DNA of 64,000 bases from Giardia intestinalis. Taxonomy: Eukaryota. Position 1 is the first letter of the stretch. Each line of letters opens with the position of its first letter. Positions 5,378 through 30,831 of this stretch are shown here, piece after piece. The stretch lies in NCBI GenBank assembly GCA_000002435.2, contig CM018792.1. One strand, given 5' to 3'. The position numbers were made by a program, and so were the translations under genes. The notes below the pieces were generated by a model that saw nothing but the letters and a program-made list of their open reading frames with translations, ran no database searches and was not told where the DNA came from.

Positions 5378-5397
5378 CCCCTAGAATATGCTCATCA

Positions 5398-8300
5398 CTA
5401 GGGTAGCATGTTCAGTGCTCCAAGCAGTGCGGAGCATTCCTCCACACAAATATCCTTTTGCAGTGTGCTTTGCATTTTTTGCTCCAATTGCAATGCATAC
5501 CTTTTTACCAATGTTATAGCGTGGTGGTCTGCGCCCGCGTCCTCAGCTTGAGTGATTAAGTGCATGATTATTATTGTTAAGTATTCCGTAGCTGCGGGGA
5601 GCCCTGCCATGTCTGCTCCCGGGTTTGTATGCAGAGTTATATACTCGTACATCCCGCTAATAAGCACGTAAGCTTTAGTTTCTTTGATGTTCATTGTTAT
5701 GTAAGATAGATCCTCTGCTGTGATAACGACGTTGCGGAGAGTGAGGACCGCCAAAGTCATACACTTCTCCACTTTGGCTTGAAGTGGCGCGTGGATGGAA
5801 CTCTCTTGATTGCCTGCCAAGCATCTTTTATAGTACTGAGTTAGCTGCTGAAGAAACTCTGCAATCAGCACTAGCAAATGATTATTTGACTCACGGAATA
5901 TGTTAGAACATTCGCGGAGTAGAGCCATGTCGGCGTATATCGATAGGATCTCTCCTAGTGTCCCAGCCGCCATACTCCTATTGTCTAGATTGTCATCTGG
6001 TTGATTGAACGAATCATGCCTATCGTTCTTCAACTCATTCTCCAGAAGAGCTGCAACTAGCTTTTCAAAAGATGATATTAGGATATACATTGTGCTTTTC
6101 TTGATCAAGATGGCAGACACCTGCGTAGGTGCAGCACGCATGCTCAAGGCCAGTATCTCGGCTGCCATCTGAGCGTGGTTCCCATTGGGCTTTTGTATTG
6201 GGTTTGTGCACGATACCGGCGTTTCGTTGTCACTCATCTCGGAGTTGTTGGCGAAGCAGTGCAAAAGCAACGAAAGAAGGTATCTTCCAGGCCCAGTTGT
6301 AAACATTGATGTTTGCTCTGCTGGCTTGCGAACAAGGTGACTGAATACACAGTGCAGCACCTCCAGACTCATATCCGCCAGAGAGCGGACTAGATCTGTA
6401 AGACTGCGGGCACGCTTTATTAACCTAAACAGTGAGAGCCACAGTGATACTGCAGCGTTGCCCTCACTTTCTCTTGCTAAGTCCTCATACGGCTGAATAA
6501 GAGATTTGTAAAGTACCGGGTTTCTGACAGCAACAGCCAAACAGACACAAAGGAAGACCAGAAAATCATTTCCATTAACGAGCAGAACATTCGTTAAAGA
6601 CTCCTCAATAAACATAGAATGGCAAGGATTCTTGATAACATTAATGATTGCTTTGAAAATGCGCACGACGCACTTTATTTGTAAATCGTATTCTTTATCC
6701 TTATCAGGCGTCTGTAGCAGACCAATGTGCGAGAGTGTTCCAACATATGTGTAGAGCAGAATATACACGCAATCAGCTTCTGCAAACCCAAATTGAGAAA
6801 GACTATATAGGATTGAGATGGCTTTTTTGAACGAGATGTCGTTACTTTTGGGTGCAGTCTCTGAAATGCTCTGGAAGCAATTGAGTAGGATCGTGCATAC
6901 AGTAATAACCACTGTCCCCGCTCTCTCACTGGAGGTTTCGTCAACGGGTGTGGATAAGGCCAGGTGTGTAATGTTATGGGCAGTAACAGAAGGCCGTTTG
7001 GAGCCCTTCTTCTTCGAGATATTGTCTGGCATCTTAGCAAATGTCTCCTCATGCATGCACATGCAAAGATATGTGTAGAGGGTATTTGCTATCGAAAAGA
7101 GAAGGGGTAAAGGGTCACTTGTCCCCAGGATCTGTCGATAGTCGGGCATAGCTGTCTCAATTAAGGCATTGACAAGGGCACTAAACGGGGCCGAAAACTC
7201 TTTGAATAGGTTAAGACGATTGAAGAGAATCATAAGGCTGGTGAGGAATGAAGAGAGGCGGAGATAGAATGACTCAGTGATGCTTAGGTGGTCTCTAGAG
7301 ATAAGAGCAGTCAGTGTGGTGATCATCTTTAGATAACTGGTTTGATACTGCACAAGTGATGTCAGTCCTCTTCGTTTCTGTGTTGACATGGCTTCGACCT
7401 CGTAAAGAAATTGCAAGCCAATGTCAAAGACGTCCAGCACAGGCTCTAGTAGCTCCTTTGCTGTATCAATTGTGAATACAGAAAGCAGATGTGCACAGAC
7501 ATCGGGGCTGAATGCGAAGGAGAAAAGCTCCTCTCCTGAGATGCCCTTTAGGGCTATCACAAACATACACCGATAAAGAAGAGAAATCCCGAGCCTTTTG
7601 AGCCGCTCATCAGCGCTCTCTATAGCGGTGGAGAGAGCAGAGAGTAACAGAGGATTGCATCGCTTGCCATCAGGCTCTTTAAAGATGTAGAGTAAAATAA
7701 TTTTATTTTTGACCAGATTGCTGGCCTCCTCTAAAAGTACTTCACTGTATGCTTCATGGCCAGACTCAAGATAAATCCGTAAGTCAACTAGCTCATCAAT
7801 CTGGGTAACCTCAGACTGCAGTACACTAGTGGGTGCAATGCAGTCAAAAAGGGAGGCTATAGCAGATAGAATAAGCAGTTGGGCATCCACAGAAGACGGC
7901 TCTCGCTGGGCTACATATGAAAGTGTGGCAGAGAGATTATCAAGATAAGCCAGAATTGATTTTTGAGATACCTTTCTTGCAGTAATGGGGTAACTATTGC
8001 GTTTCTCTTTGCGGAAGAGTGGATAGGGTTGCGATGCGCAGGAGGACGTGATTGACGCAGATACCTCAGCATCACCTGCGAGTAGGGTGCCTCTACACAG
8101 CCTTGTAATAACAAGATTGAGTACGTTGTATGCTGCCGTCGTCTCTCTCAAAACATCAACGTTTCTGCTGAGCGTGCGGAAAATGATGCTCTGCATATCA
8201 ATCGCCACAAAAAGTATGCGAAGGTCTGCTGGAGAAAAAAGAGTGTAGAGACAATCTGTCTTAACAAGAGAAAAATATAATGTAAAAAGATCATTTGGTC

Positions 8301-11300
8301 TGTAGAAATCCGCTACTGTGCGTGCGACAGCAAGCTGTCTATACAGGGAAAGCAGCAGAAATCCCAAGATGGTGTGGGACAGGGTCTCCACTGCACTTGC
8401 AAAGAGCCTGTCTTCCTTAGTAAGAAAAGGGAAAACATCAGCAATAAGACATAGTGCTGTGTGCGCCACAGAATCTATTATCTTATTGTGAAGCTCTGGG
8501 TCCAAGTTACTCAGTATGCTTACCTGCTTAGTCTTGCGCATCATCTCAGTGGAATAGACTATGCTGTCTTTTGAAGCGTCAAGGAAGGAGTCTATAAAAT
8601 CTTGGATGTGCAGATGATCATAGAGGGCTACTAGATTGATTAGAAGAGCCTCTAAGTTCAAGTGCATGATCTCATGGAAGTGGTGTTGGTTGAGAGTTTC
8701 ACCACAGTCTAAATCTAGCATATTAATAGTCATGCTAGCCTCAGTATTCACCGGGAGAAGTGGTGGGAGAAAGGTGCTTTGCTTAGGTGCCTCGAGAATT
8801 GGAGGTAGTAGAGCGATGAATCGAGATAGCAGTCTAGCCTGTTCAGTGCAGCACGTTGTTACTACTTGTAGTATGGATTGTTCTTCCATCTTTCTCCGTG
8901 ACGAACGCGTCAGCAATGACGTTACATCGAGAGCAGTAATAATCTCAAGGCCTAAGGATAAAGACATGATTGAGTCTCTCTTATTCTCGGTAAGCCCGTC
9001 AGGAATCTGTGGTATAAACCTAACTACAATGGAAACAAGGCCGCTGGCAATGACGTCTTTGAGAGCTGTCAATTCAGTGCTAGACTCTGTGGTATCATTC
9101 AAGAACTCCGCTAGATATTGCGTAAGCATTAGATATGTCGACAGATCAAGGTAGGTTTGCACGCTGGCATCTGTTAATTGCTTGAATATGTGAATGATAC
9201 TATTCACGCATGTGCTTGTGTAGGTAGTGAGTGGAGCAGTAAGAGGAGACTCTTGTGCAGAGCGATAGAATCGCACAACCCGCCTACCTAAGTAGACACT
9301 GCCCAACAGAGCAGCCCGATAGCAGGATTGGCGGATGAGAGATAGTGGAGGAGAAGTTGCCAACAAGGAAATGGAAGTGAAAGCTTCTAGAATACTTGTT
9401 AACACGTAGCTTATTCGCTGAATAAAGTCTCGAAGCAAAGTCTCCATTACTAGAAGAATGTGGAGCCTCAAGGAGGCGTCATTGGCCTTGGAGTCTCGTT
9501 GGTTAAGTGCTAGATGTCGTTCAGCTTCTATAGCAATAGCTTGGTGTAGTAGATCAAGATGCTCGTCCATAAAGACAAGAAGGATACAATTCATAAAGTG
9601 CACACACAAATCAGGATCAAATTCAAATAGGAATAGCGCCGATGACTGGAAAATGGAAATAAGTGTGCGAAGCAACATGATTAGTGGTTGAGCATTAAGC
9701 CAAAAGCGCCTTGATGCGTTATAGACAACAGCATCAACAGAAAGTTCCATGTCATGCTCAGTAATATTCCTATTGTAGCCTGGACCAATTGATTCTGTTG
9801 ATATTAACCAAGAAACGTTTCCAAAAAGCAAGTCTCTAACCAACGAATCGTTTCCTGATTCATAAAGACTCAATGATAAGAAAAATATGGTAATCTGTGC
9901 ATCTAGCTCATGCAGAAGACCGCCAAAGAGAAGGCGAGAGTCCTTTTCGCTAAAATTGGGGATTACCAGCTGGGAAATAGATGCATCAAGAGTGGCAGCC
10001 TGGTTAAATGTATCAATGATAATGAATGAGAGATAGAGAAGATTATAGACCATATCCCTTCGATCCATGGGTTTTCTATGGGCATACACTATGGCCTCAA
10101 GAGTGTCCTTGTGTGACGGGTAAGATTTGGCTAAGCTGTCACCATTCTGTACATGGGTTAGGAAGTACTTACTAACAGCCTGGTAATCAAATGTCGGTGC
10201 AGCGTGAAAGGGACTAAACTCCAGCAGATGCTCAGACACTCCCCGAGGGAAGCACCCAGATAGAACAATAAAGATAAGCTTTAGAATCTCTTGAAGTTGT
10301 TGATACAGTGATGTGCTCAGGACTACGCTAAGCTCCACGTTGCTTGATGTACTAAAGAAGCGCTTGAGAGGCGCGAGGGCAGGTGCACCGAAAAATATCC
10401 CAATAAAGCTACATACACTATCAAAATATAGCACCAATGCGGTTATGATGCTTTCAGCAAGCCTTTCATCTGATAAAATAACGCATTGATGGGCGCTAGA
10501 GAAAGAGATAACTCGATGGCTGAGAATCTGTTGAAGGATGTCCAAGTATCGGATGGAGTGATAAGGGTAAGACGTTTCTTCGATTGAAAAGCTGTCCTTG
10601 GGGGTCTGTCCACGGAGGTGTGCTCCAGGAGAATCTGTTACTCGTATGTCGTGCGAAAGCAGTTCATACGACAGTGTCACATTGCGTAAGACGAAAGTGT
10701 TAACAACAGAGAGAAGGCCAATAAGATCGTGGGCATGAAGTCTAGTGTGCGTGGGATAGAGAGCATGTGCAGATAGGTTTGTAAGAGTCCGGTCCAGAAT
10801 GTCCTCCTTCATGGGTGACATCATCAGAGTAGTCAGCACATTGTTATTGAGGAGAACCACATCATAGAAGAGTCTGAACACATGACTAAAGGACTCATCG
10901 AATACAGACGTGTGCATATACAGACACAGAATCTCTGGGCTAAATGCACGACCAGCATCATTAGACTGTGCGGCAGACGTCTCTGTTGACAGGATAGTAG
11001 GGGAGTCTAAGTGTGAGTCCAGCTGATTAGCGAGCTCTGTTCTGCAAAGTGTGGACGTGCTTCTGTGGGGCAGAGTGAAACCTCCTGGGCCATCTCCATC
11101 AGCAGATGTGGATAACTGACAGAATAGCAGCTTTTCTTTGCACGTGGACCAAACCCCTGCGTCAGTAAACGATAAAGTGAAAAGACTAGTCTCCGAGGTA
11201 TAGACGGTGATCCTCAGATTAGAACTGCTATCAATCCCGTATGTAGTTATATCTTTCCAGATAATGGCGCCATCCTGACCTATAATGTGAGCAGAGAAAG

Positions 11301-11433
11301 AAGAAGTGAAAACAACAAAGGCATCGACAAGTCCCTTTGTGTCTTCATATACTGTTGGATAACAAGCATCCACCTCATCAGAGAGGCTAGAAAGTCCAGG
11401 TAATTGCCCAATTGCATTATCAGTTGCCAACAT
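5398..11433 (-). CDS. Very large (2011 aa) Leu-rich helical-repeat protein, function unassigned
   Basis: Single 6-kb ORF convergent with UPF1 (20 bp between stops). Leu/Ile-rich, low-complexity helical character. No P-loop, kinase or other catalytic motif seen. AT-rich ttaatttaattatag just upstream of the ATG. Confidence 0.6.
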   Translation of the reverse strand: MLATDNAIGQLPGLSSLSDEVDACYPTVYEDTKGLVDAFVVFTSSFSAHIIGQDGAIIWKDITTYGIDSSSNLRITVYTSETSLFTLSFTDAGVWSTCKEKLLFCQLSTSADGDGPGGFTLPHRSTSTLCRTELANQLDSHLDSPTILSTETSAAQSNDAGRAFSPEILCLYMHTSVFDESFSHVFRLFYDVVLLNNNVLTTLMMSPMKEDILDRTLTNLSAHALYPTHTRLHAHDLIGLLSVVNTFVLRNVTLSYELLSHDIRVTDSPGAHLRGQTPKDSFSIEETSYPYHSIRYLDILQQILSHRVISFSSAHQCVILSDERLAESIITALVLYFDSVCSFIGIFFGAPALAPLKRFFSTSSNVELSVVLSTSLYQQLQEILKLIFIVLSGCFPRGVSEHLLEFSPFHAAPTFDYQAVSKYFLTHVQNGDSLAKSYPSHKDTLEAIVYAHRKPMDRRDMVYNLLYLSFIIIDTFNQAATLDASISQLVIPNFSEKDSRLLFGGLLHELDAQITIFFLSLSLYESGNDSLVRDLLFGNVSWLISTESIGPGYNRNITEHDMELSVDAVVYNASRRFWLNAQPLIMLLRTLISIFQSSALFLFEFDPDLCVHFMNCILLVFMDEHLDLLHQAIAIEAERHLALNQRDSKANDASLRLHILLVMETLLRDFIQRISYVLTSILEAFTSISLLATSPPLSLIRQSCYRAALLGSVYLGRRVVRFYRSAQESPLTAPLTTYTSTCVNSIIHIFKQLTDASVQTYLDLSTYLMLTQYLAEFLNDTTESSTELTALKDVIASGLVSIVVRFIPQIPDGLTENKRDSIMSLSLGLEIITALDVTSLLTRSSRRKMEEQSILQVVTTCCTEQARLLSRFIALLPPILEAPKQSTFLPPLLPVNTEASMTINMLDLDCGETLNQHHFHEIMHLNLEALLINLVALYDHLHIQDFIDSFLDASKDSIVYSTEMMRKTKQVSILSNLDPELHNKIIDSVAHTALCLIADVFPFLTKEDRLFASAVETLSHTILGFLLLSLYRQLAVARTVADFYRPNDLFTLYFSLVKTDCLYTLFSPADLRILFVAIDMQSIIFRTLSRNVDVLRETTAAYNVLNLVITRLCRGTLLAGDAEVSASITSSCASQPYPLFRKEKRNSYPITARKVSQKSILAYLDNLSATLSYVAQREPSSVDAQLLILSAIASLFDCIAPTSVLQSEVTQIDELVDLRIYLESGHEAYSEVLLEEASNLVKNKIILLYIFKEPDGKRCNPLLLSALSTAIESADERLKRLGISLLYRCMFVIALKGISGEELFSFAFSPDVCAHLLSVFTIDTAKELLEPVLDVFDIGLQFLYEVEAMSTQKRRGLTSLVQYQTSYLKMITTLTALISRDHLSITESFYLRLSSFLTSLMILFNRLNLFKEFSAPFSALVNALIETAMPDYRQILGTSDPLPLLFSIANTLYTYLCMCMHEETFAKMPDNISKKKGSKRPSVTAHNITHLALSTPVDETSSERAGTVVITVCTILLNCFQSISETAPKSNDISFKKAISILYSLSQFGFAEADCVYILLYTYVGTLSHIGLLQTPDKDKEYDLQIKCVVRIFKAIINVIKNPCHSMFIEESLTNVLLVNGNDFLVFLCVCLAVAVRNPVLYKSLIQPYEDLARESEGNAAVSLWLSLFRLIKRARSLTDLVRSLADMSLEVLHCVFSHLVRKPAEQTSMFTTGPGRYLLSLLLHCFANNSEMSDNETPVSCTNPIQKPNGNHAQMAAEILALSMRAAPTQVSAILIKKSTMYILISSFEKLVAALLENELKNDRHDSFNQPDDNLDNRSMAAGTLGEILSIYADMALLRECSNIFRESNNHLLVLIAEFLQQLTQYYKRCLAGNQESSIHAPLQAKVEKCMTLAVLTLRNVVITAEDLSYITMNIKETKAYVLISGMYEYITLHTNPGADMAGLPAATEYLTIIIMHLITQAEDAGADHHAITLVKRYALQLEQKMQSTLQKDICVEECSALLGALNMLP

Positions 11434-12368: not shown

Positions 12369-14111
12369 TCAAGTCTTCTGTGCATGCATTTTCTTTGCTC
12401 TTCGCAGCTTCAAGTTTTCTACCCTGATCCTTTTCAAACCGAAACCGAGGTGGACAATAGCAAGCAGAACAAAAACAGCAATGATTATAAATACAGTGAC
12501 GTAAACCATTGATGTGTCCGAGAAAACAAGCCGTTTGATCGGCATCGTGACGGAGATCCCTGACATGGGGTATGTGGCAGTGAAAAGTGCTTCTGTGAAG
12601 TGTCTAACAGCACCTATATTCCTATTCCGCTCTGATTGTTTGTATGAAGAAGTAAATGATTTCACTGCGGACTTACAGGATAGAATCCCCTCCACCTGCA
12701 CTGTGGCATAGTCATTACAGGTCCAGCACACAGAGTAATTTGCCAAAGAGAAGTAGTGGTTCTGGGTGAATGTGCCTAGGTCGGGTAGGGACAGACTCAA
12801 TGTGTATAGTAGGCTATACTTCAAGCTGATGGGGCACGTGTCAGATGTAGCGGAGGAAAAGTGGACACAGATGTCTGTGCTAGAAAAGGAAAGGTATGCG
12901 TCCTGCCAGCAGCCCAGCTGTTTATTGGTCACCTGCTGCTTGTAATAGAACGAAAGATCCCCGTTACTTCCTGTCTCTACTATTTCCAGAATTAGGATCA
13001 TAGAGTCCAAATTGGTTAGCCTAAATGCATTGGAAAGAAGCAACTTGCACGTCAGATCTCCATTGGCACATTGAAAGTCTATCGTTTGAGTATCTGAGAA
13101 GTTGAATGCAGAAAGTGAGATGCCCTCCATTGTGGCTTTTAAACCGGCATTAGTATAGAACAGATGGCAATTGAAGGCACGTTGCCCGTTGGCCAACACT
13201 TGGCAATCTTGGTTGCTAGGGTTGTTTGCTCCCTCAACAAGCATACGTATTCTATCTCCGTAGATTGATGCCGCGATAGACCTAGTACAGGAAGCCTTGG
13301 CTGAGCTATAAAGACTAAGAAGCTCCATTGATAAGGGAATTTCCACTGTTTTATCCTTCGCTGTACCTACCTTAATGGTGTAGTTTAGTTGAACGCTTAC
13401 CCAGGGATCTTTAACTGCCAAGAGGAGCGTGGTGAGCTGATCAGATGAAATGGTCGTCAACGGGAAGGTTAGATCTGCGGGCTGAATAGGTGGCTGCTTT
13501 ATATTGAAGGAGGTCGTTAGAATGAAGTTTCCGGCAGCATTTTTCACAGCCAGTGTGCCAGACACTACTTCTGGTTTAGCTGGATTATCACAGAGGCCTG
13601 TCTCAACGAGCTTGAGATTCCCCGATCCCGTTGTGTAGTCAAATGTGGCTAAGGATTGTGTCTCTGAGAAGCACTTTGTTAGATGCTCTCTGTTACCTGA
13701 TATGGATGCAAAGTTGACGTTGGCTCTGTAGCGAACGGTTTGAATGCAGAGTGATGCATACTCAGATGTGAAGAATGCCTCCATGCAGCGCTTTAGGACG
13801 ACATCGTCGGTCTGTGGACATGCAAAGGTGATTGTCTGGTCCATGGAATAATTGAAAGCACTTACGGAGGCAATGATCGTCTCATTGAACTTAGAAATAT
13901 TCAAGTGCATAGACACAGAGTCTGTGAATACCTTACAAGCAATGAGCATGGTGGGGGTAATTGTAACACTAATACTGGCTGTTGGGATGTCATAGATAAC
14001 TTCACTGAAGGGAGACCAACAATTGTGGACTTCCTCCTGCTCGACCCCGCCTCCAAGAAGAGGCCACAGCAGGCCCCCGATGACCAGTGTTGCCATCTCA
14101 GCAAAGAGCAC
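12369..14111 (-). CDS. Type I membrane glycoprotein (signal peptide + C-terminal TM + basic tail), unknown function
   Basis: N-terminal hydrophobic leader (ATLVIGGLLWPLLGGG). Many N-x-S/T sequons. Single C-terminal TM (VYVTVFIIIAVFVLLAIVHLGFG) followed by basic tail KRIRVENLKLRRAKK. About 3% Cys, no CXXC arrays and no CRGKA tail. Confidence 0.55.
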   Translation of the reverse strand: MLFAEMATLVIGGLLWPLLGGGVEQEEVHNCWSPFSEVIYDIPTASISVTITPTMLIACKVFTDSVSMHLNISKFNETIIASVSAFNYSMDQTITFACPQTDDVVLKRCMEAFFTSEYASLCIQTVRYRANVNFASISGNREHLTKCFSETQSLATFDYTTGSGNLKLVETGLCDNPAKPEVVSGTLAVKNAAGNFILTTSFNIKQPPIQPADLTFPLTTISSDQLTTLLLAVKDPWVSVQLNYTIKVGTAKDKTVEIPLSMELLSLYSSAKASCTRSIAASIYGDRIRMLVEGANNPSNQDCQVLANGQRAFNCHLFYTNAGLKATMEGISLSAFNFSDTQTIDFQCANGDLTCKLLLSNAFRLTNLDSMILILEIVETGSNGDLSFYYKQQVTNKQLGCWQDAYLSFSSTDICVHFSSATSDTCPISLKYSLLYTLSLSLPDLGTFTQNHYFSLANYSVCWTCNDYATVQVEGILSCKSAVKSFTSSYKQSERNRNIGAVRHFTEALFTATYPMSGISVTMPIKRLVFSDTSMVYVTVFIIIAVFVLLAIVHLGFGLKRIRVENLKLRRAKKMHAQKT

Positions 14112-14126
14112 AGGAGGTTTATTTAT

Positions 14127-17100
14127 TCAAAACTGGTATCTGTGCCTTCGTCGAGCGGCCTCGGCAGCGTCAGCTTCGCGTTTCCGATGAGCCAGCACGG
14201 ACTCCCTTTCTAGGCGGAGAAGCTCGTTGCCGCGGACTTGGGCGACTTCGACCTCACAGTCTCTATCGTATTGCCCAATATAGCTTGTGCCCTGGAATAT
14301 TGTGACAGCCTCGCCCAGTGACTTTACAAGCCCTTCTGAACGGCTTATGACAGATTTTGATAGGAGCTTCAGGTCATTCCGCAGCCCAGCGTCTCTCTTG
14401 ATCGTCTGCTCCAAAAGAGGAACCGTGTGGAGCAGAAAGGTCTGCGCCCATTCCATGCCAGCGCTAATATATGGAGTTTCTCGAACAAACTGTGCCAACA
14501 TTGTTATGAATTTCCGATAGTGCTTGGAATTTAAAAGCTGTATTGTGTGTAAAATGATCCTCTCAATGTCGGCTTTTAATTTAGACGCTTTATAGATGGT
14601 TGTTATGTAAAGCTCAAACAACTCCTTGTTGTGCAAAATCATGGCAATCTGAAGCCCATGGGCCAGACACGGTATGTTGTTATGATCAAATTTCTCCATT
14701 CTAAGAGAGCCGGACACGATACTGTTTGCGTGCTCTCTCTCGTAGCAATCTAAAATGATCCCTGCTGAAGTAGCCACTGTCACCTCAATTCCTAGATCAG
14801 CTATGTCTATATACCTGTTGTACTTGGTAGTCTCCCTAGTGTACTCCAATGCTCCAAAGGGCGTAAGGGCCAAGAAGCGCATTCCATCCGGAGAGACACA
14901 GAGGTCAATCACTCGTGCCTCCAGCCGCTTTCCAGTGACCTCCTGAAGCGAGTCAACGACTCTCCGTGACTCACGGTCCCGTATCTTTGTCAATTGCACA
15001 AGGCTGCGGACGGCCATGCCGGCCTCGTCATCACTGGAGTCTGAAATATGCTTGTCAAGTATCTCACGTGTATTCTTATCCAGAATGTCTCTCTTTCTAA
15101 CACCAGCTATGCCCTTATCGATGGTGATCTGATACTTTCCCACAAGTGTGTATGGCCATGTCTTGTATAAATACACGATTATGTACTTGGAGTCTCCAGC
15201 GCAAATAAGGAAGTCACCCACGATGCAGAAGTTCTTGCACGCTTTCCCATAAGAGCTTGACATATAGTGTCTATGTTCATCGTCTTTGAACCCACCAAGT
15301 ATGTCTCTCCCAACGTTAAATACTCCCGTTTGCTCTCCACCTTCCACGCTCCATATGGTGATCCTTCCGTTACTTGTCGAGGTCAAGAGCTGCAACCCGT
15401 CGGGGGTGAAGTCGACTTGCAACACCTCCACACCCTCGGGTAAGATCTCACACGGGATACTCGGTGAGAAGGTGCTCCATACACGCGTTGTTCCATCCCA
15501 GCTACTGCTTGCAAGCTCTCCTGTCCCCAAGGGTGAAAAGCTGAGAGACGTTATGGGACCTGTGTGGCCAGACAGAACTTCCAAGAGCTTAGATGTGCGG
15601 AGCTGGAATAGATATATCTCAAAGTCTCCATCCGAGCATCCCACTGCTATTATGTCCCCGGAAGGCTCTACCGCCAGGGCAGAGAAAGACCTAATGATTC
15701 CGCGGCTAATTGAATTGGTTAGCGCATTCAGATCGTTTGCAATTATCCTTGTATTAATAGAAAGTTTCCGGAATGTCACTTTCTTGGTTAAGTCAAATGC
15801 AAAGACCAAACCGTCGGCGCCTGCAGAGATCAGCACGCGGCTTGTCTTACTGAATCGCACCTTTGTCACAGCCGCTAAGTGATTTGTTACAACAGCATAT
15901 GAGAAGCCAGAAGCAAGGTCATATACGTGCACGGCTCCATTGACACACCCTATGGCATAAAATTCACCATTTTCGGAAACATCTGCACAGGTCGTTTGAG
16001 GGGGCGGTACCTCCTGGATGACAAACGTCTCGGCCAGATAATCGAACACGCACAGCGAGTGATCGTGGCTGCAAGCCAACATTAAGTAGTTTTTGTAGAT
16101 ACATGCTGAAGTGATAGGGTATGTGCAGGCTTTGAGATTATGAATGTGCTTGAAGTGAGAGATACGGGAGCTTGACTTCGAGCACTGTTCGTTCCAGAGC
16201 AGAACGTCCTCCACCGATAGAGACTCTCGCTCAATAGCAAGCTTAAAATACAAGGTATCAAATGCATATAGGCTATAGTGGCCATCTGCAAAGCCCACTA
16301 CGATAGTCCCAGCAGATGGTGCAATGGATTGGGGGTCGTCATTGTTTCCTATCTCAAATCCTGCTGATAGGATGATTGCTGATGCCTGCTCCTCTGCTCT
16401 CTTTCTATCATACCCAGTGTATACTTTTTCTGGTTCGAGATTGTAATCAATCACCGGATTCTCGAGTAGCTTTGTTGTCTCCAGATTATCAATAGATATC
16501 TTATTCCCATCATGATCTATGATAAAGTTCTTGGCATCCTCAGTCTTGCTTTCATCGTCCTTTTCATCCGTATCGGACCGCTCCTGCTCCTTGTCATATA
16601 AAAGCCGCGTGTCTCTGAGGATGTCCCTTTTCTCAATTAGATGCCAGGCCCAGGCACTTGTGGCCTCCGGCGCTCCTGATTCCTCGCTCGATTCTTGCTC
16701 ATGTTCCTCATCTTCGTGGCCAGCTCCTGGGGCCCACACATTTAGAAAGCCCTTTCTCGAAACTGTCACTATACTATATGAAGGCAAGGTGCCCTTTGCA
16801 GCCCTCTCTAGGTCGACGTGCTCCAAGTTCACGTAGGTATCAATCATGTCTGCAATGCGCGACGTTGTTCCCTCCGAGAACTCTGTTTGAGTAGGGTCCT
16901 CACTATCTAACTCAATCCCTGTCACCTGCAACTTCATAAACTCATACAGACTCATCTGTGGGTTCTTTATAAACGAGCGAATGTCAAGCAAGGATCCACG
17001 CTGGGCTGCATCCTCCGTCACTGCCTGGATGCAGTAGGCATCAGAGGACCCTCCACTGTGGCCACCCAGGTGAGCTGTGCTGTAGTTCAGTACTAGGCGA

Positions 17101-17645
17101 AGAGGATGGGTGGGGTCGAGCACCGAGTAGCACTTAACGTTATTGGAGTTTCCAGCCACTACTAGAAATAGCTCATCAGGTGTGAAGCGCATAGACATCA
17201 CGCGCATGCCACATGGCACGGTAGTTATTAGCTCGAATTTGGAGGAGCTGAGTGTAGTCACTCCAGAGCGTAGATTCATCAGCGGGGTTGCCCACACATG
17301 AATTGACCTAGACGATGATACAGCTAGAATGGATCCATCAGAATTGAAGCAAAGAGCCTCAACTGGATACCCGAAGGCCATACGGCACAAACTCAAGCCA
17401 GACTCAACGGAAATAAGTGATCCGTTGTTACGGTTATCAACAGCAAAGATAAAGCGCTCATTGGCCGTGATGGTGAACCGCTTGAGCTTGTATCTGGCCT
17501 CGTATGGAAGTGTGATGGATGTTTTGGAAAAGGGGTTGATTGAGCGAATGCGATTGTGTGCTATCGTATATATGTCTCCACTGGCACAATGTATCTTTCC
17601 AGCCGTGTGAATATCTGTTAAAAGGTTGTTGAAAGAGTACGCCAT
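14127..17645 (-). CDS. WD40-repeat protein with C-terminal Utp12-like helical domain (PWP2/UTP12/UTP21-like SSU-processome candidate)
   Basis: Multiple WD signatures (SGHTGPITSLSFSP..SSSWDGTTRVWS; ISAGADGLVFAFDL; IAVGCSDGDFEIY). Acidic insert (HEDEEHEQESSEESG). C-terminal helical region (MEWAQTFLLHTVPLLEQ) resembling Utp12/Dip2 domains. Family assignment is tentative. Confidence 0.5.
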   Translation of the reverse strand: MAYSFNNLLTDIHTAGKIHCASGDIYTIAHNRIRSINPFSKTSITLPYEARYKLKRFTITANERFIFAVDNRNNGSLISVESGLSLCRMAFGYPVEALCFNSDGSILAVSSSRSIHVWATPLMNLRSGVTTLSSSKFELITTVPCGMRVMSMRFTPDELFLVVAGNSNNVKCYSVLDPTHPLRLVLNYSTAHLGGHSGGSSDAYCIQAVTEDAAQRGSLLDIRSFIKNPQMSLYEFMKLQVTGIELDSEDPTQTEFSEGTTSRIADMIDTYVNLEHVDLERAAKGTLPSYSIVTVSRKGFLNVWAPGAGHEDEEHEQESSEESGAPEATSAWAWHLIEKRDILRDTRLLYDKEQERSDTDEKDDESKTEDAKNFIIDHDGNKISIDNLETTKLLENPVIDYNLEPEKVYTGYDRKRAEEQASAIILSAGFEIGNNDDPQSIAPSAGTIVVGFADGHYSLYAFDTLYFKLAIERESLSVEDVLLWNEQCSKSSSRISHFKHIHNLKACTYPITSACIYKNYLMLACSHDHSLCVFDYLAETFVIQEVPPPQTTCADVSENGEFYAIGCVNGAVHVYDLASGFSYAVVTNHLAAVTKVRFSKTSRVLISAGADGLVFAFDLTKKVTFRKLSINTRIIANDLNALTNSISRGIIRSFSALAVEPSGDIIAVGCSDGDFEIYLFQLRTSKLLEVLSGHTGPITSLSFSPLGTGELASSSWDGTTRVWSTFSPSIPCEILPEGVEVLQVDFTPDGLQLLTSTSNGRITIWSVEGGEQTGVFNVGRDILGGFKDDEHRHYMSSSYGKACKNFCIVGDFLICAGDSKYIIVYLYKTWPYTLVGKYQITIDKGIAGVRKRDILDKNTREILDKHISDSSDDEAGMAVRSLVQLTKIRDRESRRVVDSLQEVTGKRLEARVIDLCVSPDGMRFLALTPFGALEYTRETTKYNRYIDIADLGIEVTVATSAGIILDCYEREHANSIVSGSLRMEKFDHNNIPCLAHGLQIAMILHNKELFELYITTIYKASKLKADIERIILHTIQLLNSKHYRKFITMLAQFVRETPYISAGMEWAQTFLLHTVPLLEQTIKRDAGLRNDLKLLSKSVISRSEGLVKSLGEAVTIFQGTSYIGQYDRDCEVEVAQVRGNELLRLERESVLAHRKREADAAEAARRRHRYQF

Positions 17646-17681: not shown

Positions 17682-18908
17682 ATGTCCCGCTCGTCTGCTT
17701 CTCTCTTCAACATTATTGCCTCTCCGGCGGTGACTCGCATCGCTCGCTTTATCCTCTCAAGCAATGAGAATCAATTTATCCATTTTTTCTCGGCGTTGTA
17801 TCCGGCTGGAGCTCCCCATACAGTCATCGCAAGATCTGTCGACGGGTCTCACTACGTCATCGACATGAAGGCCCGAAAGATCCACAATACGTTTGGCCGC
17901 AAAGAATTCCTTGCTGCCACAAACACCAACACCAAGCTTTGGTGCAGCATCGACCCGGCGAAAAATGCCATCTTCATCCGCGACTGGGAGGCCCCCAAGC
18001 TACTAATATACCAAGAATTCACTGACAGAGTTCCTGTCTCGATAGCTTTGTCCAAGGACTATGTGGCTATCGTCAGCGTGCCGTACAATAGAAAGCACCG
18101 CGGCAAGGATGGAATCTCCGCTGAGCAAATCCATGCGCTTCCTGATGCAGCTACCTCCTTAGACAACGTTGAAACAAGCTCAGTTGCTGGCTCCTTCACT
18201 AGCGATGGCCAGTCACTGGCCAACTTCACCGGCCACATTGCGAGCGTCGACGTTGCGTACGCTCTGACAAAGGAAGGGGCCCGCAAGGGGCTGCCTGATT
18301 TGGTCAATCGGCCGGGTGTTGAAAAGAGTACAGAGTCAGGTCTCCTCAATTTCACGATCAGTATATATCGGTTTAGGAAGCTAGAAAGTAAAGATGCACA
18401 CACCAAGTATGCCGGGCAGGTGGTCTCTAAGTGTGAACTAGTGCGCCAATCACACTTAGACTTCGCTGCATCTGGCATTATATCGACGGCGTTCGACCAT
18501 GCAGACAGCTCACAGCTCTACATTGCACTGCAGAGTGACGAGCTAATTACTCTCGACACCACAACAAACGAACTGTATCGCGAGACGACCGATGGATACC
18601 CTTGGGAAGTTTTGTCCGCAGGATACGGCAAGGAGTACAGCATCCGTGTCCCTGTGGCTGGAAGGCGCACACAAGCCATGAAACTTTCAGTGCCCATAAG
18701 CTGCTATGGCACATACGTGGTAAGTTCAAACCGCGAGTCGTCCACTTTATACAAAAATGGAGAGCCTATCATTGAGGGATTCCCACCAGCGACCTGTGTG
18801 TCGCCAGACTCTGCCTTTGTGTGGTTCTACCTCAACGGAGTCTTCTACGAGCTGGATCTTCACAAGCTCGCTGAGATGAAAGAGACAATCCAAATTAAGT
18901 GCCTATAG
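17682..18908 (+). CDS. Hypothetical protein, paralog A (shares N- and C-terminal domains with ORF 21404..23065)
   Basis: 408-aa ORF. N-terminal block FIHFFSALYP..GSHYV..NTFGRK..LWCSIDP..IRDWEAPKLLIYQEF and C-terminal block LSVPISCYGTYVVSSNRESSTLYKNGEPIIEGFPPATCVSPDSAFVWFY align to the downstream paralog. Divergent from the WD40 gene with a 36-bp AT-rich spacer. Confidence 0.6.
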   Translation: MSRSSASLFNIIASPAVTRIARFILSSNENQFIHFFSALYPAGAPHTVIARSVDGSHYVIDMKARKIHNTFGRKEFLAATNTNTKLWCSIDPAKNAIFIRDWEAPKLLIYQEFTDRVPVSIALSKDYVAIVSVPYNRKHRGKDGISAEQIHALPDAATSLDNVETSSVAGSFTSDGQSLANFTGHIASVDVAYALTKEGARKGLPDLVNRPGVEKSTESGLLNFTISIYRFRKLESKDAHTKYAGQVVSKCELVRQSHLDFAASGIISTAFDHADSSQLYIALQSDELITLDTTTNELYRETTDGYPWEVLSAGYGKEYSIRVPVAGRRTQAMKLSVPISCYGTYVVSSNRESSTLYKNGEPIIEGFPPATCVSPDSAFVWFYLNGVFYELDLHKLAEMKETIQIKCL

Positions 18909-21197
18909 TTTTATTGCCCTCCTGCTGTTGGATCCTTTTGTGCTCTTATTTGTCCTTGCAACGTTACTCACGACGCCACTCGTTTTCTTCGGTATGTCCT
19001 GAGAAGAAACCTTAGATGAGACAGCCCGCTTTTCACTTCTGTCTAAAGAAATGCCTGAAGATCCTCCTAACTTCAGCTCTCGTGGATGCTCTGTTAGTAG
19101 ATCGGCAACGTCTTCCTTTACCTTGGTGGCTGCTCCGACCAAGTGCATTGGTGGTCTTCTCAGCTTCGATAAGGGTTTGAGAGGCTTTGAAAGCAGAGAC
19201 TCTAACCGGGCCCTAGAGATCTTTATTTGCTCAGAGAGCTCTTGAGAGACGGCCTGTGCTTCAGGGTTATTTGTAAATTCTCGAAAGTCCCCATCTGACT
19301 CATCCGAGGAACTATTAAAGTTCTTCTCGTCGCGACGCTTGTACGACTGTCTCCTCATAAAGCTCTGGTTTTCGACAAGAGCGTCTGCCGCCTTAGAGGC
19401 CGCAAGCCAGATGTGCTTGATGCTTTTTAGAATGTCACTCTGGATGTCAATAGCTGGAGGCATTGTCTTCTGGGTGTAGCCACACACAGATGCGATTTGG
19501 ACAAAGCGACTGTTGTCAGCTGGAGAAATCAGAGAGACTGCCATTCCCACATGCTTCTGGTCAGCGCCCGATTCCACCCGTGCTGCACGACCAACCCGGT
19601 GGATATGACTGGAGGTGGAGTCCGGGGCCGAATGCTGAATAACAAGCGATACATGGGGAATGTCAAGGCCTCGGGCGCACACATCTGTAGTGATTAGAAC
19701 GGTATCATCACGGTCACGGAGTCTGTCCACATTCTTATATCTCTGACGCTGAGGCATCGACGCATGTACACACCACGCGGAGATGCCAAGGAGCTGGAAT
19801 ATGGTCGTGAAGTTCTTAGCCTGATCAATAGTCTTTACAAAGATGATCGTGGGGTAACGATATCGGATCACGAGATACGCCATTAATACGCTTTTCTCCG
19901 CCTCATCAAACACGTGATTCCACAGTTCAAAAACAGCCTTATTAACGATACAATCTGGAGATATGTCAACAATGACCAATTTGCTGCCCGAAAAGCCTAG
20001 ATTGCTAAGAACCTTCAACCACGACATGTATATCTGCCGCTGGCTTTCGGTTACTGATGCGTTATCAGCTATTTCGAGCACGAGCGCCTTCTTCGATGAG
20101 CGAATAGCTCTGTCGAATTTGTTGTCCTTGCGAGAACCCCACTTCTTCTCCTTCCATGTTCTTCCTTGATTAGATGGCTGCCCTGTCTCCTCATCGGGCT
20201 CTGAAAACTTTATATTCCGCTCTCTGAGCAGCGATGGAAGGCTCATAGTTGCTGAGCTGATTGTGACTTTTGCTGTACAACCATCGACCACGGTGCTTGT
20301 GAGAGAGCTACACAAGTCTATGAGCTCATGAAACCGGCCCTTCTGAAGCATCTTATCTGACTCATCTATGACCAGTCTGTCTATCAAGCTGGTGTCGGCG
20401 AAGAACGCATTAGACCTTGAAATGTCATACAAACGGCCCGGGGTGCCCACTAGTATGAGGGGCCGCTCCCGTATGAAGCGCTCCTGCTTCTGGGGAGAGA
20501 TCCCGCCCACAATGGTGTACATTATGCGAAAACACTTCTGGATGTCCCCAAATATTGTTGTCATCACAGTATTGATCTGCGTGGCCAGCTCGCGTGTCGG
20601 TGCAATGATAAGGGTCTGCAAGGCTCGCCTCTGGGCCTGGTCTGGGCGCTTGAGGGCATTGGTCACCAGGGTAAATGCCTTGTGAAGTGCTGGGAGCAGA
20701 TATGCAAGGGTCTTCCCAGAACCTGTTTCAGCGGCGATGACAAGGGACTTGTTATGGAGGGCAGCCCTTATTGTCTGAGTCTGAATGGCGCGGGGCTTGG
20801 TATATCCTGCTCGCACCAAATACTTACAGAGAACAGGATGAAGGCCCAGTCTAACCCATTCATCTATGCCCTCAACGTCGGCAAGAGAGCATATTTCATC
20901 AACAAACTCCTGCTTGTAACTGTGATCAGCCATAACATTCAGCTCATCCTCAGGAAAACTCTGAAAAGCATTTGAATCCTCACTGCTCTCTGCAGAAGAT
21001 GCCTTCTGCGGGGAGCTCTTGGCCTTATCGAAGAGGTTCTGCTGAAAAAGCTCCTTATGGGAAATTGTCTCCAGACTGACGAGCCCAGAATGTATGTCTC
21101 CGTTCTGGAGCTTGAGTGACGGGTCGGGCCGCCACTTTGCCCGGTGGAGGATGGACGTCGCGACAGGCCTCATTGAATTAATTCCATCGCGGACCAA
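18903..21197 (-). CDS. DEAD-box (DESD variant) ATP-dependent RNA helicase
   Basis: Motifs Q (TKPRAIQ), I (AAETGSGKTLAYLLP), Ia (PTRELATQ), Ib (GTPGRL), II (DESDKM), III (SAT), ARGLDIP, VI (HRVGRAAR). Long charged/Ser-rich C-terminal tail typical of nucleolar DEAD-box helicases. Confidence 0.85.
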   Translation of the reverse strand: MVRDGINSMRPVATSILHRAKWRPDPSLKLQNGDIHSGLVSLETISHKELFQQNLFDKAKSSPQKASSAESSEDSNAFQSFPEDELNVMADHSYKQEFVDEICSLADVEGIDEWVRLGLHPVLCKYLVRAGYTKPRAIQTQTIRAALHNKSLVIAAETGSGKTLAYLLPALHKAFTLVTNALKRPDQAQRRALQTLIIAPTRELATQINTVMTTIFGDIQKCFRIMYTIVGGISPQKQERFIRERPLILVGTPGRLYDISRSNAFFADTSLIDRLVIDESDKMLQKGRFHELIDLCSSLTSTVVDGCTAKVTISSATMSLPSLLRERNIKFSEPDEETGQPSNQGRTWKEKKWGSRKDNKFDRAIRSSKKALVLEIADNASVTESQRQIYMSWLKVLSNLGFSGSKLVIVDISPDCIVNKAVFELWNHVFDEAEKSVLMAYLVIRYRYPTIIFVKTIDQAKNFTTIFQLLGISAWCVHASMPQRQRYKNVDRLRDRDDTVLITTDVCARGLDIPHVSLVIQHSAPDSTSSHIHRVGRAARVESGADQKHVGMAVSLISPADNSRFVQIASVCGYTQKTMPPAIDIQSDILKSIKHIWLAASKAADALVENQSFMRRQSYKRRDEKNFNSSSDESDGDFREFTNNPEAQAVSQELSEQIKISRARLESLLSKPLKPLSKLRRPPMHLVGAATKVKEDVADLLTEHPRELKLGGSSGISLDRSEKRAVSSKVSSQDIPKKTSGVVSNVARTNKSTKGSNSRRAIKL

Positions 21198-21403
21198 GCA
21201 TTTGTGTAAAATTACTGCTAAAAGTGAAATTAATACAAAACACTTAGACCAAATCTACCAGGATGGCAATCCTCGAGCAATAGACGCGACTGGCTGACTG
21301 TCTTGCCATCAATATTCTGTACTCTAGCTACCGGACGGGCAGTGGAAGGACCGACGAGCACTGACATTCAAGCAATGACTGCGGAAAAATTCTAGATTAC
21401 AAA

Positions 21404-23065
21404 ATGGAATCTCCCTTAAAAACCGGCAGATTGGCTTCCGATGACGCAAATGTATTCTCACTGGTAGAACTGCTGGAGACAGATGCGGTCAAAATGCTTT
21501 GCGAATCCATGGTCATTGATAGACGGAACGATTTCATTAACTATTACACAACCTTATTTCCAACGCACATGGATCGTGTGATCATCGGGCAAACGCTTAG
21601 CGGCTCCCATAATGTGGTAAACCTGAACACGGGAACAGTTATCAACACGTTTGAGCGCCGCCAGGCCCTTTCGTCATTTTCTCACGACTCGCAGCTGTGG
21701 TGCGCCATTGACCCGCTGAGCCAGTCACTTTATCTCCGTGACTGGGCCATTCCGCGCCTCCTCATCTTCCATGAGTTCCAAGATCACCTTGTGCTCAGCA
21801 CTGCACTGATGCAGGACTACATAGCGATCATTTACACCAAGCTTCCACCAGCAAAGAGGGCCAAGTCTTCGGGGAAAGCTTCTTCAAAGACATGTCTTAG
21901 CCGGGCAACAAGCGACCATGATATACAAGCCAATGACCCTGAGTCCGAGGTCAAGACGTTCGCAGATCACGGTGACAACATGGACGATGGGGCTATCGGG
22001 GACCTAAGAGACTCTGACCTGGACACCGCGCAGATTCCTGAGAAAGATGTCGATCCAGGGTTCTTAAGCAGAAGCCTTAGCCAACTGAATGTTATCAGTA
22101 ACACCGCGGGAGATCTTACCAGCGTGGAGCTGAACGATGACTCCGATGATTCGGAGAGCTCTGAACACTTAAAGAATTATACTTCTATGAGTCTTGCTAG
22201 AGACCGTGACTACATGCTCTCGTGTAGAAACACACTTGATAGTAAGCTGTCTACCCGTAAGCAAGGTGGCAGCCCCGTTGCTACCTCAATGGACGGGACC
22301 TCGTCCAAAGGAGAGGTATCATCGCTGAGTGACCAGCACAGGCTGGTGTCTACTGTCCCCCTATCGATTAATCAGAGTCCCCTTCTTTCCCAAAGTGCAA
22401 CCCTTTCCTTCCTTGACAGAGAGGAGGTCAGAACTCCTGTGGACCAGCTGACCCCTAATAAGAGCATAGAGCCCGAGTTCACCGTTAACATATATCGCAT
22501 AAACAAGAGCGTGCACGGAAACACTTTTACGGCTCCGTACTCCCTTGATAGGGTGGTGAGTCAGCGCCTCCGTGGATCGGTTGTGCTGGGAAGCTATTTC
22601 GAAACCGATCAAACACGCCTATATATTGTCATGCCCAATTACGAAATGTATATTATGGACCTAATTACATACGAAACAGAGTTTGTAAAAACGACTGCTT
22701 ATCCCCAACGCTTCGGACTAGGGCATGCAGGCGGAGAGTATCGCTTCACAATCTCATCAACAGGAAAAAATTTGAAACTGAGCACTCCGATAAGCACATA
22801 TGGGCAGTACATACTGACCTCAAACAAAGAATGTAGCACGGTCTATCGCAATGAAAAGGTCTACATTGAGGGGCTTCCGCCTGCAGCCTGTCTCAGCCCT
22901 AAGAAGCCAGTTGTTTGGTTTTACATAAGCGGGAGGTTTTGCGAGCTTAACTTATTAAAAGTCAAACGTAACCAAAGAACCCTAATACTTAAGACGAATG
23001 CAAGGGGCCAGATGCCAACTAATTCTAAAATTTCTAAACCGGCTATTGCTTATAAGGTAAAGTAA
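21404..23065 (+). CDS. Hypothetical protein, paralog B (homologous to 17682..18908) with ~200-aa acidic/Ser-rich low-complexity insert
   Basis: 553-aa ORF. N-terminal block FINYYTTLFP..GSHNV..NTFERR..LWCAIDP..LRDWAIPRLLIFHEF and C-terminal block LSTPISTYGQYILTSNKECSTVYRNEKVYIEGLPPAACLSPKKPVVWFY match paralog A. Central D/E/S-rich segment has no counterpart in A. Confidence 0.6.
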   Translation: MESPLKTGRLASDDANVFSLVELLETDAVKMLCESMVIDRRNDFINYYTTLFPTHMDRVIIGQTLSGSHNVVNLNTGTVINTFERRQALSSFSHDSQLWCAIDPLSQSLYLRDWAIPRLLIFHEFQDHLVLSTALMQDYIAIIYTKLPPAKRAKSSGKASSKTCLSRATSDHDIQANDPESEVKTFADHGDNMDDGAIGDLRDSDLDTAQIPEKDVDPGFLSRSLSQLNVISNTAGDLTSVELNDDSDDSESSEHLKNYTSMSLARDRDYMLSCRNTLDSKLSTRKQGGSPVATSMDGTSSKGEVSSLSDQHRLVSTVPLSINQSPLLSQSATLSFLDREEVRTPVDQLTPNKSIEPEFTVNIYRINKSVHGNTFTAPYSLDRVVSQRLRGSVVLGSYFETDQTRLYIVMPNYEMYIMDLITYETEFVKTTAYPQRFGLGHAGGEYRFTISSTGKNLKLSTPISTYGQYILTSNKECSTVYRNEKVYIEGLPPAACLSPKKPVVWFYISGRFCELNLLKVKRNQRTLILKTNARGQMPTNSKISKPAIAYKVK

Positions 23066-28977: not shown

Positions 28978-30831
28978 ATGAAAAAGGCCAATCCGATCGC
29001 TAATCGTCCATCGTTTGCCGGCATTTTGGAAGCCATCCGGCACAACGACCTGGTCACTTTAAAAACGCTGATTAACAAAAGCGGAGTACAGCGAGATGCA
29101 GAAGGCCAAACAGCTTTAATGCACGCAGCCTTTCTCGGTAATGATGCAGCCTGTAAGCTCCTGCTTCCCCTGCAAGCGGGGTGCACAGACAATATGGGCT
29201 GCACAGCCCTAATGTTCGCCGCCGAAAGAGGGCATTTACAAATAGTTAAGGGCTTGCTCGGCCACGAAGCCCGGATGCAAGATGGTAACGGTGTCACAGC
29301 ACTGATGCTAGCAGCACGAGGAGGTCATCTAGCATGTGTGCAAGAGCTAATTCCCCACGAGTCCACATTGACAGACCGATCCCATGGCACAGCACTCATG
29401 TCAGCCGCGTTGTGCGGGCATTCTGACATTGTGCGGCTTCTCCTCCAGAAGGAGGCACGCGTTCAGACCGTGGAAGGGGTCTCTGCTCTCATGGTTGCTG
29501 CACAAGGCGGTGACTTGGCGACATGCAGACTACTTCTGGAGAAAGAGGCGGGGCTGCAAACACGAAATGGGTGGACAGCCTTAGCGTTTGCTTGTAGAGA
29601 GAAGAACTATTTAGTTGTTCAGCTTTTGAAGAGCAAGGAGGCAGGGCTCTGCGACAAAAATGGCACGACATCCCTGATGCGTGCGGCTCGTGCAGGGTGT
29701 ACACAATCAGTCGAGTGCCTCCTCAAAGCAGAGACAAACCGTCAAGATAAACGCGGGCGCACGGCTCTTATGTATGCTGCGAATGCGGGGAACATGGAGT
29801 GTGCCAAGCTGCTTGCAACCTATGAAGCTGGCCAACAAGATAAGCAAGGAGTCACTGCTCTCATGATAGCAGGTGATAAGAACAATGTGGAAATAGTTAC
29901 ATTACTGTTGGCTAGCGAGAGCTCTCTTACAACCAAGCAGGGTGCAACAGCATTGACTTACGGAAACATACCACATTACACTCCCATACTCAATACATTG
30001 AAGCACTACTTTATTATCACGGGAGGTGCTATTGATGTCAAGAAGATAAAGCGGCGAACTGTAATTGCATATCGGAAAATACATGCAGAGATGCCTGCGC
30101 TTCTCTCGTTCTTTGATAGGTTTTGCGCCTTGATTATGGAGAATCTCACTGGCTCGTCGGCGTATGTTGACACTGTGTTATCTGACTGTCTTCTTGAACT
30201 TGACGACCTTCTGGCAATCGATCTCGATGAAGGCAGCTGTGCCATCTGTCTAGACTCTCTGCCATCGATTGTGTATCTTCCGTGCAGACATCTCTCCATC
30301 TGTGAGCTTTGCAACAATCTATTACATGACCGGAAATGTCCGTTATGCACGACACCCATAACATCCTTCTTTTCGCTAAACTATGACCTCCCATCTAACA
30401 AGCCCCAGCAGCCAGCTTCTCCTGTGGCACCGCCACCAAAATCTAAGCAGGTGTCCAACACCCGTTCCTCCGTGACTTCTTCTTCTCATGCTTATACAGG
30501 TCCAGCCAAGCGTTCTGGAAGAGACCACAGGATACGTGCACGAACATTCCAAGAACTGGATGCGGAAACAGTTCCTGGTGGGCATTTCCTCCAGAGGGGC
30601 CTTATTCGTGCAATAATAGATGATTGTGAAGAGCAGCAGCAGCAGTTGCTACGTAACCGTCGGCCTTCCGCCATGCCTACTACGCCACAGACCAATGACT
30701 CCCCAGTTATTATCAGAAGAGGGAAGACAGCGTTTGAGCAGTTGATGGACGGCGAGATGGACCTAAATATGTGGCCGGGGTCTAGCGTTCAAGAAGGCTC
30801 CTCTAAGATGGGACCGCTGAAAGGGCATTGA
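28978..30831 (+). CDS. Ankyrin-repeat protein with C-terminal C3HC4 RING finger (putative E3 ligase; Giardia 'protein 21.1'-like)
   Basis: At least 10 ankyrin repeats (TALMxAAxxGHxxxVxxLL pattern). C-terminal RING (CAICLDSLPSIVYLPCRHLSICELCNNLLHDRKCPLCTTPI). The ORF 5' end overlaps the longest version of the divergent SMC ORF. Confidence 0.75.
   Translation: MKKANPIANRPSFAGILEAIRHNDLVTLKTLINKSGVQRDAEGQTALMHAAFLGNDAACKLLLPLQAGCTDNMGCTALMFAAERGHLQIVKGLLGHEARMQDGNGVTALMLAARGGHLACVQELIPHESTLTDRSHGTALMSAALCGHSDIVRLLLQKEARVQTVEGVSALMVAAQGGDLATCRLLLEKEAGLQTRNGWTALAFACREKNYLVVQLLKSKEAGLCDKNGTTSLMRAARAGCTQSVECLLKAETNRQDKRGRTALMYAANAGNMECAKLLATYEAGQQDKQGVTALMIAGDKNNVEIVTLLLASESSLTTKQGATALTYGNIPHYTPILNTLKHYFIITGGAIDVKKIKRRTVIAYRKIHAEMPALLSFFDRFCALIMENLTGSSAYVDTVLSDCLLELDDLLAIDLDEGSCAICLDSLPSIVYLPCRHLSICELCNNLLHDRKCPLCTTPITSFFSLNYDLPSNKPQQPASPVAPPPKSKQVSNTRSSVTSSSHAYTGPAKRSGRDHRIRARTFQELDAETVPGGHFLQRGLIRAIIDDCEEQQQQLLRNRRPSAMPTTPQTNDSPVIIRRGKTAFEQLMDGEMDLNMWPGSSVQEGSSKMGPLKGH

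Follow-up and report, generated by a model that had tools for sequence, protein, structure and literature searches.

Two diverged orphan genes flanking a DEAD-box helicase gene in Giardia intestinalis, with a predicted beta-propeller fold

At the level of fold, the closest described class for the two genes treated here appears, from predicted models, to be that of the seven-bladed WD40-type beta-propellers, represented by WDR91 (6vyc/8shj), COP1 (5igo), WDR26 (8qbn), and the U3 small nucleolar ribonucleoprotein protein in 5oql_O. Nearly all non-enzymatic eukaryotic propellers are protein–protein interaction platforms. The genes, paralog A and paralog B, lie on either side of a DEAD-box helicase gene in a window (the whole stretch analyzed) of 64,000 nucleotides from contig CM018792.1 of Giardia intestinalis (duodenalis) WB, assemblage A (Table 1). 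They share the "hypothetical protein" label of the Giardia orphan families in GiardiaDB, and carry it in assemblages A (WB, DH) and E (P15); A also appears in one organelle proteomics list. About half of Giardia genes are "hypothetical." Unlike WD40-type propellers, A and B have no WD40 signature, no match to the Pfam propeller clan, and no detectable repeat of ~40 amino acids (aa); their identity to any structural match is 5–15%, a disordered loop of 87–209 aa is predicted in the third blade, and the family is restricted to Giardia. The reading that we prefer, with a probability of roughly 0.7, is that A and B are duplicates within an orphan family, each of them a single WD40-like beta-propeller with a disordered third-blade loop that serves as a soluble interaction platform.

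Comparison of A with B by BLASTP gave two collinear high-scoring segment pairs (HSPs), an ungapped N-terminal one (A7–161 vs. B19–173; 31% identity, E = 8e-30) and a C-terminal one (A224–406 vs. B359–530; 34% identity, E = 1e-29). A previous sequence-only reading of the window had proposed these two plus-strand open reading frames (ORFs) as paralogs sharing an N and a C block; the ORF boundaries that it gave are exact, and both E-values fall far under the limit of 1e-3 beyond which it would have abandoned the claim. Its block lengths (~100 and ~90 aa) were underestimates, the blocks covering ~135–155 and ~183 aa. The motifs that it quoted all occur in both proteins and are invariant over 8 orthologue clusters (3 A-type, 5 B-type), namely GSHxV, NTFxR, LWCxIDP, RDWxxPxLLIxxEF, and DYxAI in the N block, and FTxxIYR, LSxPISxYGxY..SNxExSTxYxN, IEGxPPAxCxSP, and VWFY in the C block; G.F.EL.L.K, which follows VWFY, is likewise carried by both proteins and by all 8 clusters. 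There is no DNA-level similarity left between the A and B regions, no third copy within the window, and no further paralog detectable anywhere in the protein collection. Judged by sequence comparison, A and B are real, ancient duplicates. The gene order WD40(-) / A(+) / helicase(-) / B(+) / NPL4-like(+) / SMC(-) is the same in WB-like assemblies and in two divergent Giardia lineages represented by public assemblies (L006 and L007), so that the A–helicase–B arrangement, the conservation of which had been put forward for checking, is identical in all of them. Because the whole neighborhood is syntenic across lineages, the duplication is older than the radiation of the Giardia lineages compared, and the synteny shows nothing more; an early duplication is consistent with paralog identities of 31–34% and the lack of residual DNA similarity.

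In the predicted structure, the N block would form the first ~2.5 blades and the C block the remainder of the ring, with a disordered surface loop (87 aa in A and ~209 aa in B) leaving the third blade. The propeller fold and the assignment of both blocks to one domain are held with moderate confidence on the basis of these models, and the ring probably has seven blades. By analogy with other propellers, both proteins would most likely be soluble, non-enzymatic scaffolds that dock other proteins. After duplication, A and B may have split partners or regulation and been retained as a subfunctionalised pair; a plausible role for the acidic, Ser-rich loop of B would be that of a regulatory or partner-binding extension, such as a phosphorylation target. 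SCAP, also matched by structure, is unrelated to A and B in sequence. It spans the membrane several times, but A lacks transmembrane (TM) segments; the match came from the model with a predicted local distance difference test (pLDDT) of 40, among hundreds of near-equal scores.

Word-indexed searches of 5.8e9 protein clusters returned only close Giardia orthologues. When a HMMER profile was run against 1.84e9 representatives of protein clusters, exactly three matched at E <= 1e-3. Two are the clusters of A and of B, and the third is a fragment of 149 aa (P0044; E = 7e-7) from a contig of JGI metagenome 3300010163 (L005; 2772 bp, 58% GC). The ORF of this fragment continues past the contig end (at least 326 aa) and has a low-complexity middle, then a diverged C block (LSLTTPIS..VYRNGTPFIEALPRA..VFWLNGWFYTADL); the protein resembles A (32%, E = 3e-11) somewhat more closely than B (26%, E = 7e-8). 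A further protein search, with a profile that included this metagenomic relative, found only three A clusters among the matches listed, and two DNA scans of metagenome contigs with C-block and N-block patterns yielded no confirmed relative; L005 itself was not recovered by them and apparently lies outside that collection. As far as these searches reach, the A/B family is an orphan in sequence, restricted to the Giardia lineage; the sequence-only reading had raised Giardia-specificity as a point to check, and the protein collections gave Giardia only, apart from P0044. In the literature, A (as Gl94654) is filed as "hypothetical protein, not Giardia-specific" without a stated reason (PMC3986054 Table 1, Table S2). 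That label was not reproduced, as searches of more than 5e9 proteins turned up a single metagenomic fragment beyond Giardia, and it may be due to a spurious BLAST hit. The searched literature says nothing on the function, localisation, or structure of A or B beyond the proteomics list, and neither the A–B paralogy nor the propeller assignment was found in it; the genes themselves are already in databases as hypothetical proteins. We regard A and B as an orphan sequence family of their own, whose predicted structure is of a known type. The pair is an ordinary lineage-specific one and does not amount to a novel kind of system.

Both A and B are functional genes under purifying selection, and A is expressed. 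Orthologues in L007 are ~91% identical for A (N block) and 76% identical for B, and those in L006 85% and 73% identical, respectively. Synonymous divergence (dS) is at least 1.3, which is near or past saturation, against a nonsynonymous divergence (dN) of 0.04–0.09 in the conserved blocks, giving dN/dS of ~0.02–0.07. Gl94654 was detected by mass spectrometry in 3/3 samples enriched in encystation-specific vesicles (ESVs) and is listed without a signal peptide, with 0 TM segments, and without a localisation (PMC3986054, Table S2). Its presence in the ESV fraction is compatible with, although no proof of, peripheral association with membranes of the endoplasmic reticulum or ESVs, or with ribosomes. 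Spurious ORFs are ruled out by the dN/dS values and by the detection of A. In L006, automatic annotation of the A orthologue (3840–5468, plus strand; P0003, 542 aa) adds 134 aa at the N-terminus, up to the edge of the WD40 gene upstream; this extension has no counterpart in other orthologues, the conserved start gives 408 aa, and a gene-caller artefact is the probable explanation. The start codons of A and of the 1172-aa WD40 gene are 36 bp apart, which makes these a divergent pair with a minimal shared promoter region. AT-rich stretches lie directly upstream of the ATG in both A and B; such stretches are typical Giardia initiators.

Several observations weigh against the propeller interpretation. 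Confidence in the models is low (mean pLDDT 51.7 and 40.0), both were built on the same alignment of only 8 sequences and so are not independent, Foldseek template modeling scores reach only 0.3–0.5, and the 24 clear strands assigned by DSSP fit six blades as well as seven. No WD40 (PF00400) or other propeller family (clan CL0186) was assigned to A or B by hmmscan against Pfam-A at E <= 1, in a run in which the neighboring 1172-aa WD40 protein served as the positive control (1.9e-30); the scan gave only noise (Lsr2, 0.054; SAM_EPH, 0.14), in agreement with the earlier failure to recognize any known domain. Searches of PDB sequences with A alone or with the family profile found no match, chance ones (MtrR, V-ATPase subunit D, bacterioferritin) having E ~0.5 or above. 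An internal ~40-aa repeat with the GH...WD pattern is absent by hhalign self-comparison of the 8-sequence alignment (best off-diagonal E = 0.76). The detection of A in the ESV fraction, moreover, rests on low spectral counts. Membership of the WD40-repeat family is rejected, as there is neither a profile match nor a tandem repeat.

Sequence drift past the point of detection is common in Giardia, and A and B might on that account be hyper-diverged orthologues of a conserved eukaryotic propeller, such as a Utp protein of the 90S/small-subunit (SSU) processome, Nup37 or Aladin, WDR4/Trm82, or a Sec12-like protein. We consider this unlikely. Neither the PDB sequence search nor the scan of 1.84e9 representatives indicated orthology to Utp/SSU-processome proteins, Nup37/Aladin, WDR4, or Sec12, and a C-terminal TM anchor of the Sec12 type is missing from A, which has 0 TM segments (PMC3986054 Table S2). 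Another view, assumed by the sequence-only reading, takes the N and C blocks as two independent domains on a flexible linker, the closed propeller arising falsely from an all-beta prediction of low confidence. It would account for pLDDT values that are low throughout, for undetectable internal repeats, for the 87–209 disordered residues between the blocks, and for the alignment of the blocks as separate BLAST HSPs; we judge it improbable, and the single propeller remains the preferred reading.

In the predicted single-propeller model, the variable region has a single location, following strand 10 and inside the third blade. It comprises 87 aa in A (aa 136–222) and 209 aa in B (aa 149–357), a net difference of ~120 aa; among B orthologues it measures 198–215 aa, with indels, and the metagenomic relative has 110 aa or more of it. 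Because it lies at one position and varies in A, the B orthologues, and the metagenomic relative, it is a length-variable surface loop, prone to change in length, that was already in the common ancestor. To a moderate degree, the B loop is acidic and rich in Ser and Thr (D+E 17%, S+T 24%, net charge -13), and its dN of 0.25–0.30 vs. 0.05–0.09 in the flanking blocks corresponds to protein evolution that is 4–5 times faster; the A linker is almost as constrained as its flanks (dN 0.07–0.08). The earlier description of a lineage-specific local duplication that diverged by a ~200-aa, D/E/S-rich insertion absent from A therefore holds in part: duplication and lineage restriction stand, as do the longer middle of B and, in moderate degree, its composition, but A has a linker of its own, and an ancestral loop that expanded in B or contracted in A replaces the insertion. 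The B insert contains no tandem repeats at score >= 30 and no mark of recent slippage; tandem-repeat expansion is thus ruled out as its source. A candidate loop motif, N[FY][TA]..s...D..Y, occurs in A (SLANFTGHIASVDVAYALT), B (HLKNYTSMSLARDRDYMLS), and the L005 protein (SSVNFASQSVQRDYEYFQR; ~220–290), where it overlaps the sole predicted helix of each loop. The motif lacks statistical significance (hhalign E = 0.45; BLAST E = 0.12) and is retained as a lead only, not as evidence.

The interposed helicase gene, located on the minus strand between A and B as previously noted, encodes a product of 756 aa from an ATG at 21173, the mechanical ORF beginning at a TTG at 21197. The DEAD (1.4e-31) and Helicase_C (3.3e-23) domains of Pfam and a DESD motif II agree with its description as a "nucleolar-type DESD-box helicase," of which the nucleolar type is not established: in the PDB, many DEAD-box subfamilies (DDX23, CshA, Has1, eIF4A) are matched to a similar degree. 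A and the helicase gene converge and share 6 nt (18903–18908), the palindrome CTATAG, in which the last Leu codon (CTA) of each gene is the reverse complement of the TAG stop of the other; the 3′ untranslated region of A therefore lies inside the helicase coding sequence, and that of the helicase inside A. On L005, 1.1 kb downstream of the family relative, positions 2112–2771 (plus strand) encode the N-terminus of a superfamily 2 (SF2)/DEAD-like helicase (Pfam DEAD 2.7e-11) with atypical motifs (PTGTGKT, PTGTLA, TPSVL). Orthology to the Giardia helicase is rejected, as similarity is confined to Walker A (E = 4e-5, 40 aa); the best PDB matches are weak and Brr2-like, the orientation differs from the Giardia arrangement, and until shown otherwise the adjacency is regarded as coincidence. 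A functional tie of A and B to the interposed helicase, as cofactors or a co-regulated module (for example, diplomonad-specific propeller cofactors in ribosome biogenesis or RNA remodelling), would fit the retention of A–helicase–B in three Giardia lineages, the divergent intergenic region of 206–230 bp shared by B and the helicase, the SF2/DEAD-like gene near the sole relative beyond G. duodenalis, and the existence of propeller–helicase partnerships such as Nup214–Ddx19 (3fmo), but is very improbable, because conservation extends equally to the entire neighborhood (WD40, A, helicase, B, NPL4, SMC, Ank-RING), whose synteny is a product of recent shared ancestry rather than of selection on the trio, because the L005 helicase differs in the respects just given, and because chance adjacency is plausible where DEAD-box genes are as numerous as in eukaryotic genomes.

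A fold class for hypothetical genes narrows the hypotheses about them, and its importance here is modest: the assignment is useful for annotation and would not surprise a specialist, and it neither introduces a new mechanism nor resolves a long-standing question. On the analogy and models above, A and B may be handled as soluble scaffolds of the propeller type rather than as unknowns, and as a pair of ancient origin kept by selection; tagging and pull-down of both would be reasonable, especially given the presence of A in the encystation-vesicle fraction. If the propeller reading is true, a propeller can shed all sequence-level repeat signal and yet keep strongly constrained blocks.

Table 1. 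Coordinates of paralogs A and B, their parts, and other genes of the window.
Feature	Position	Strand	Remarks
Paralog A (GL50803_94654 / XP_001707275.1)	17682..18908	+	408 aa; annotated "hypothetical protein"; ORF identical to database entry
A, predicted layout			N-terminal helical lead ~aa 1–35; beta strands aa 36–134; disordered loop aa 136–222; beta strands aa 225–392
A, N-terminal conserved block (aa 1–135)	17682..18086	+	10 beta strands in model, ~2.5 blades
A, middle linker (aa 136–222)	18087..18347	+	predicted disordered, pLDDT 22–34; one short helix aa 189–195
A, C-terminal conserved block (aa 223–408)	18348..18905	+	~14 beta strands in model, remaining blades
DEAD-box (DESD) RNA helicase (XP_001707274.1)	18903..21197	-	NCBI name "ATP-dependent RNA helicase"; Pfam domains
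Paralog B (GL50803_3007 / XP_001707273.1)	21404..23065	+	553 aa; annotated "hypothetical protein"; ORF identical to database entry
B, N-terminal conserved block (aa 1–148)	21404..21847	+	
B, expanded middle loop (aa 149–357)	21848..22474	+	acidic, Ser/Thr-rich; predicted disordered (pLDDT 22–29) except helix aa 254–278
B, C-terminal conserved block (aa 358–530)	22475..22993	+	
B, C-terminal tail (23 aa)	22994–23062	+	basic, poorly conserved
1172-aa multi-propeller WD40 protein, directly upstream of A	14127–17645	-	Utp21/WDR36- and WDR3-like profile matches
UPF1-like helicase (UPF1_Zn_bind + AAA_11/12)	1463–5374	+	Pfam
Ankyrin-RING protein	28978–30828	+	Pfam
Ankyrin-containing protein kinase (NEK-like)	34409–35959	+	Pfam
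VID27-type WD40-like protein	41222–43441	+	Pfam
Glutamate dehydrogenase	43464–44810	-	Pfam
5412-aa ORF	45938–62176	-	

Elsewhere in the window, two minus-strand ORFs, 5401–11433 (2011 aa) and 12372–14111 (580 aa), are without a Pfam match at E <= 1e-5. A rise in GC at 42–46 kb overlaps the VID27-like and glutamate dehydrogenase genes.
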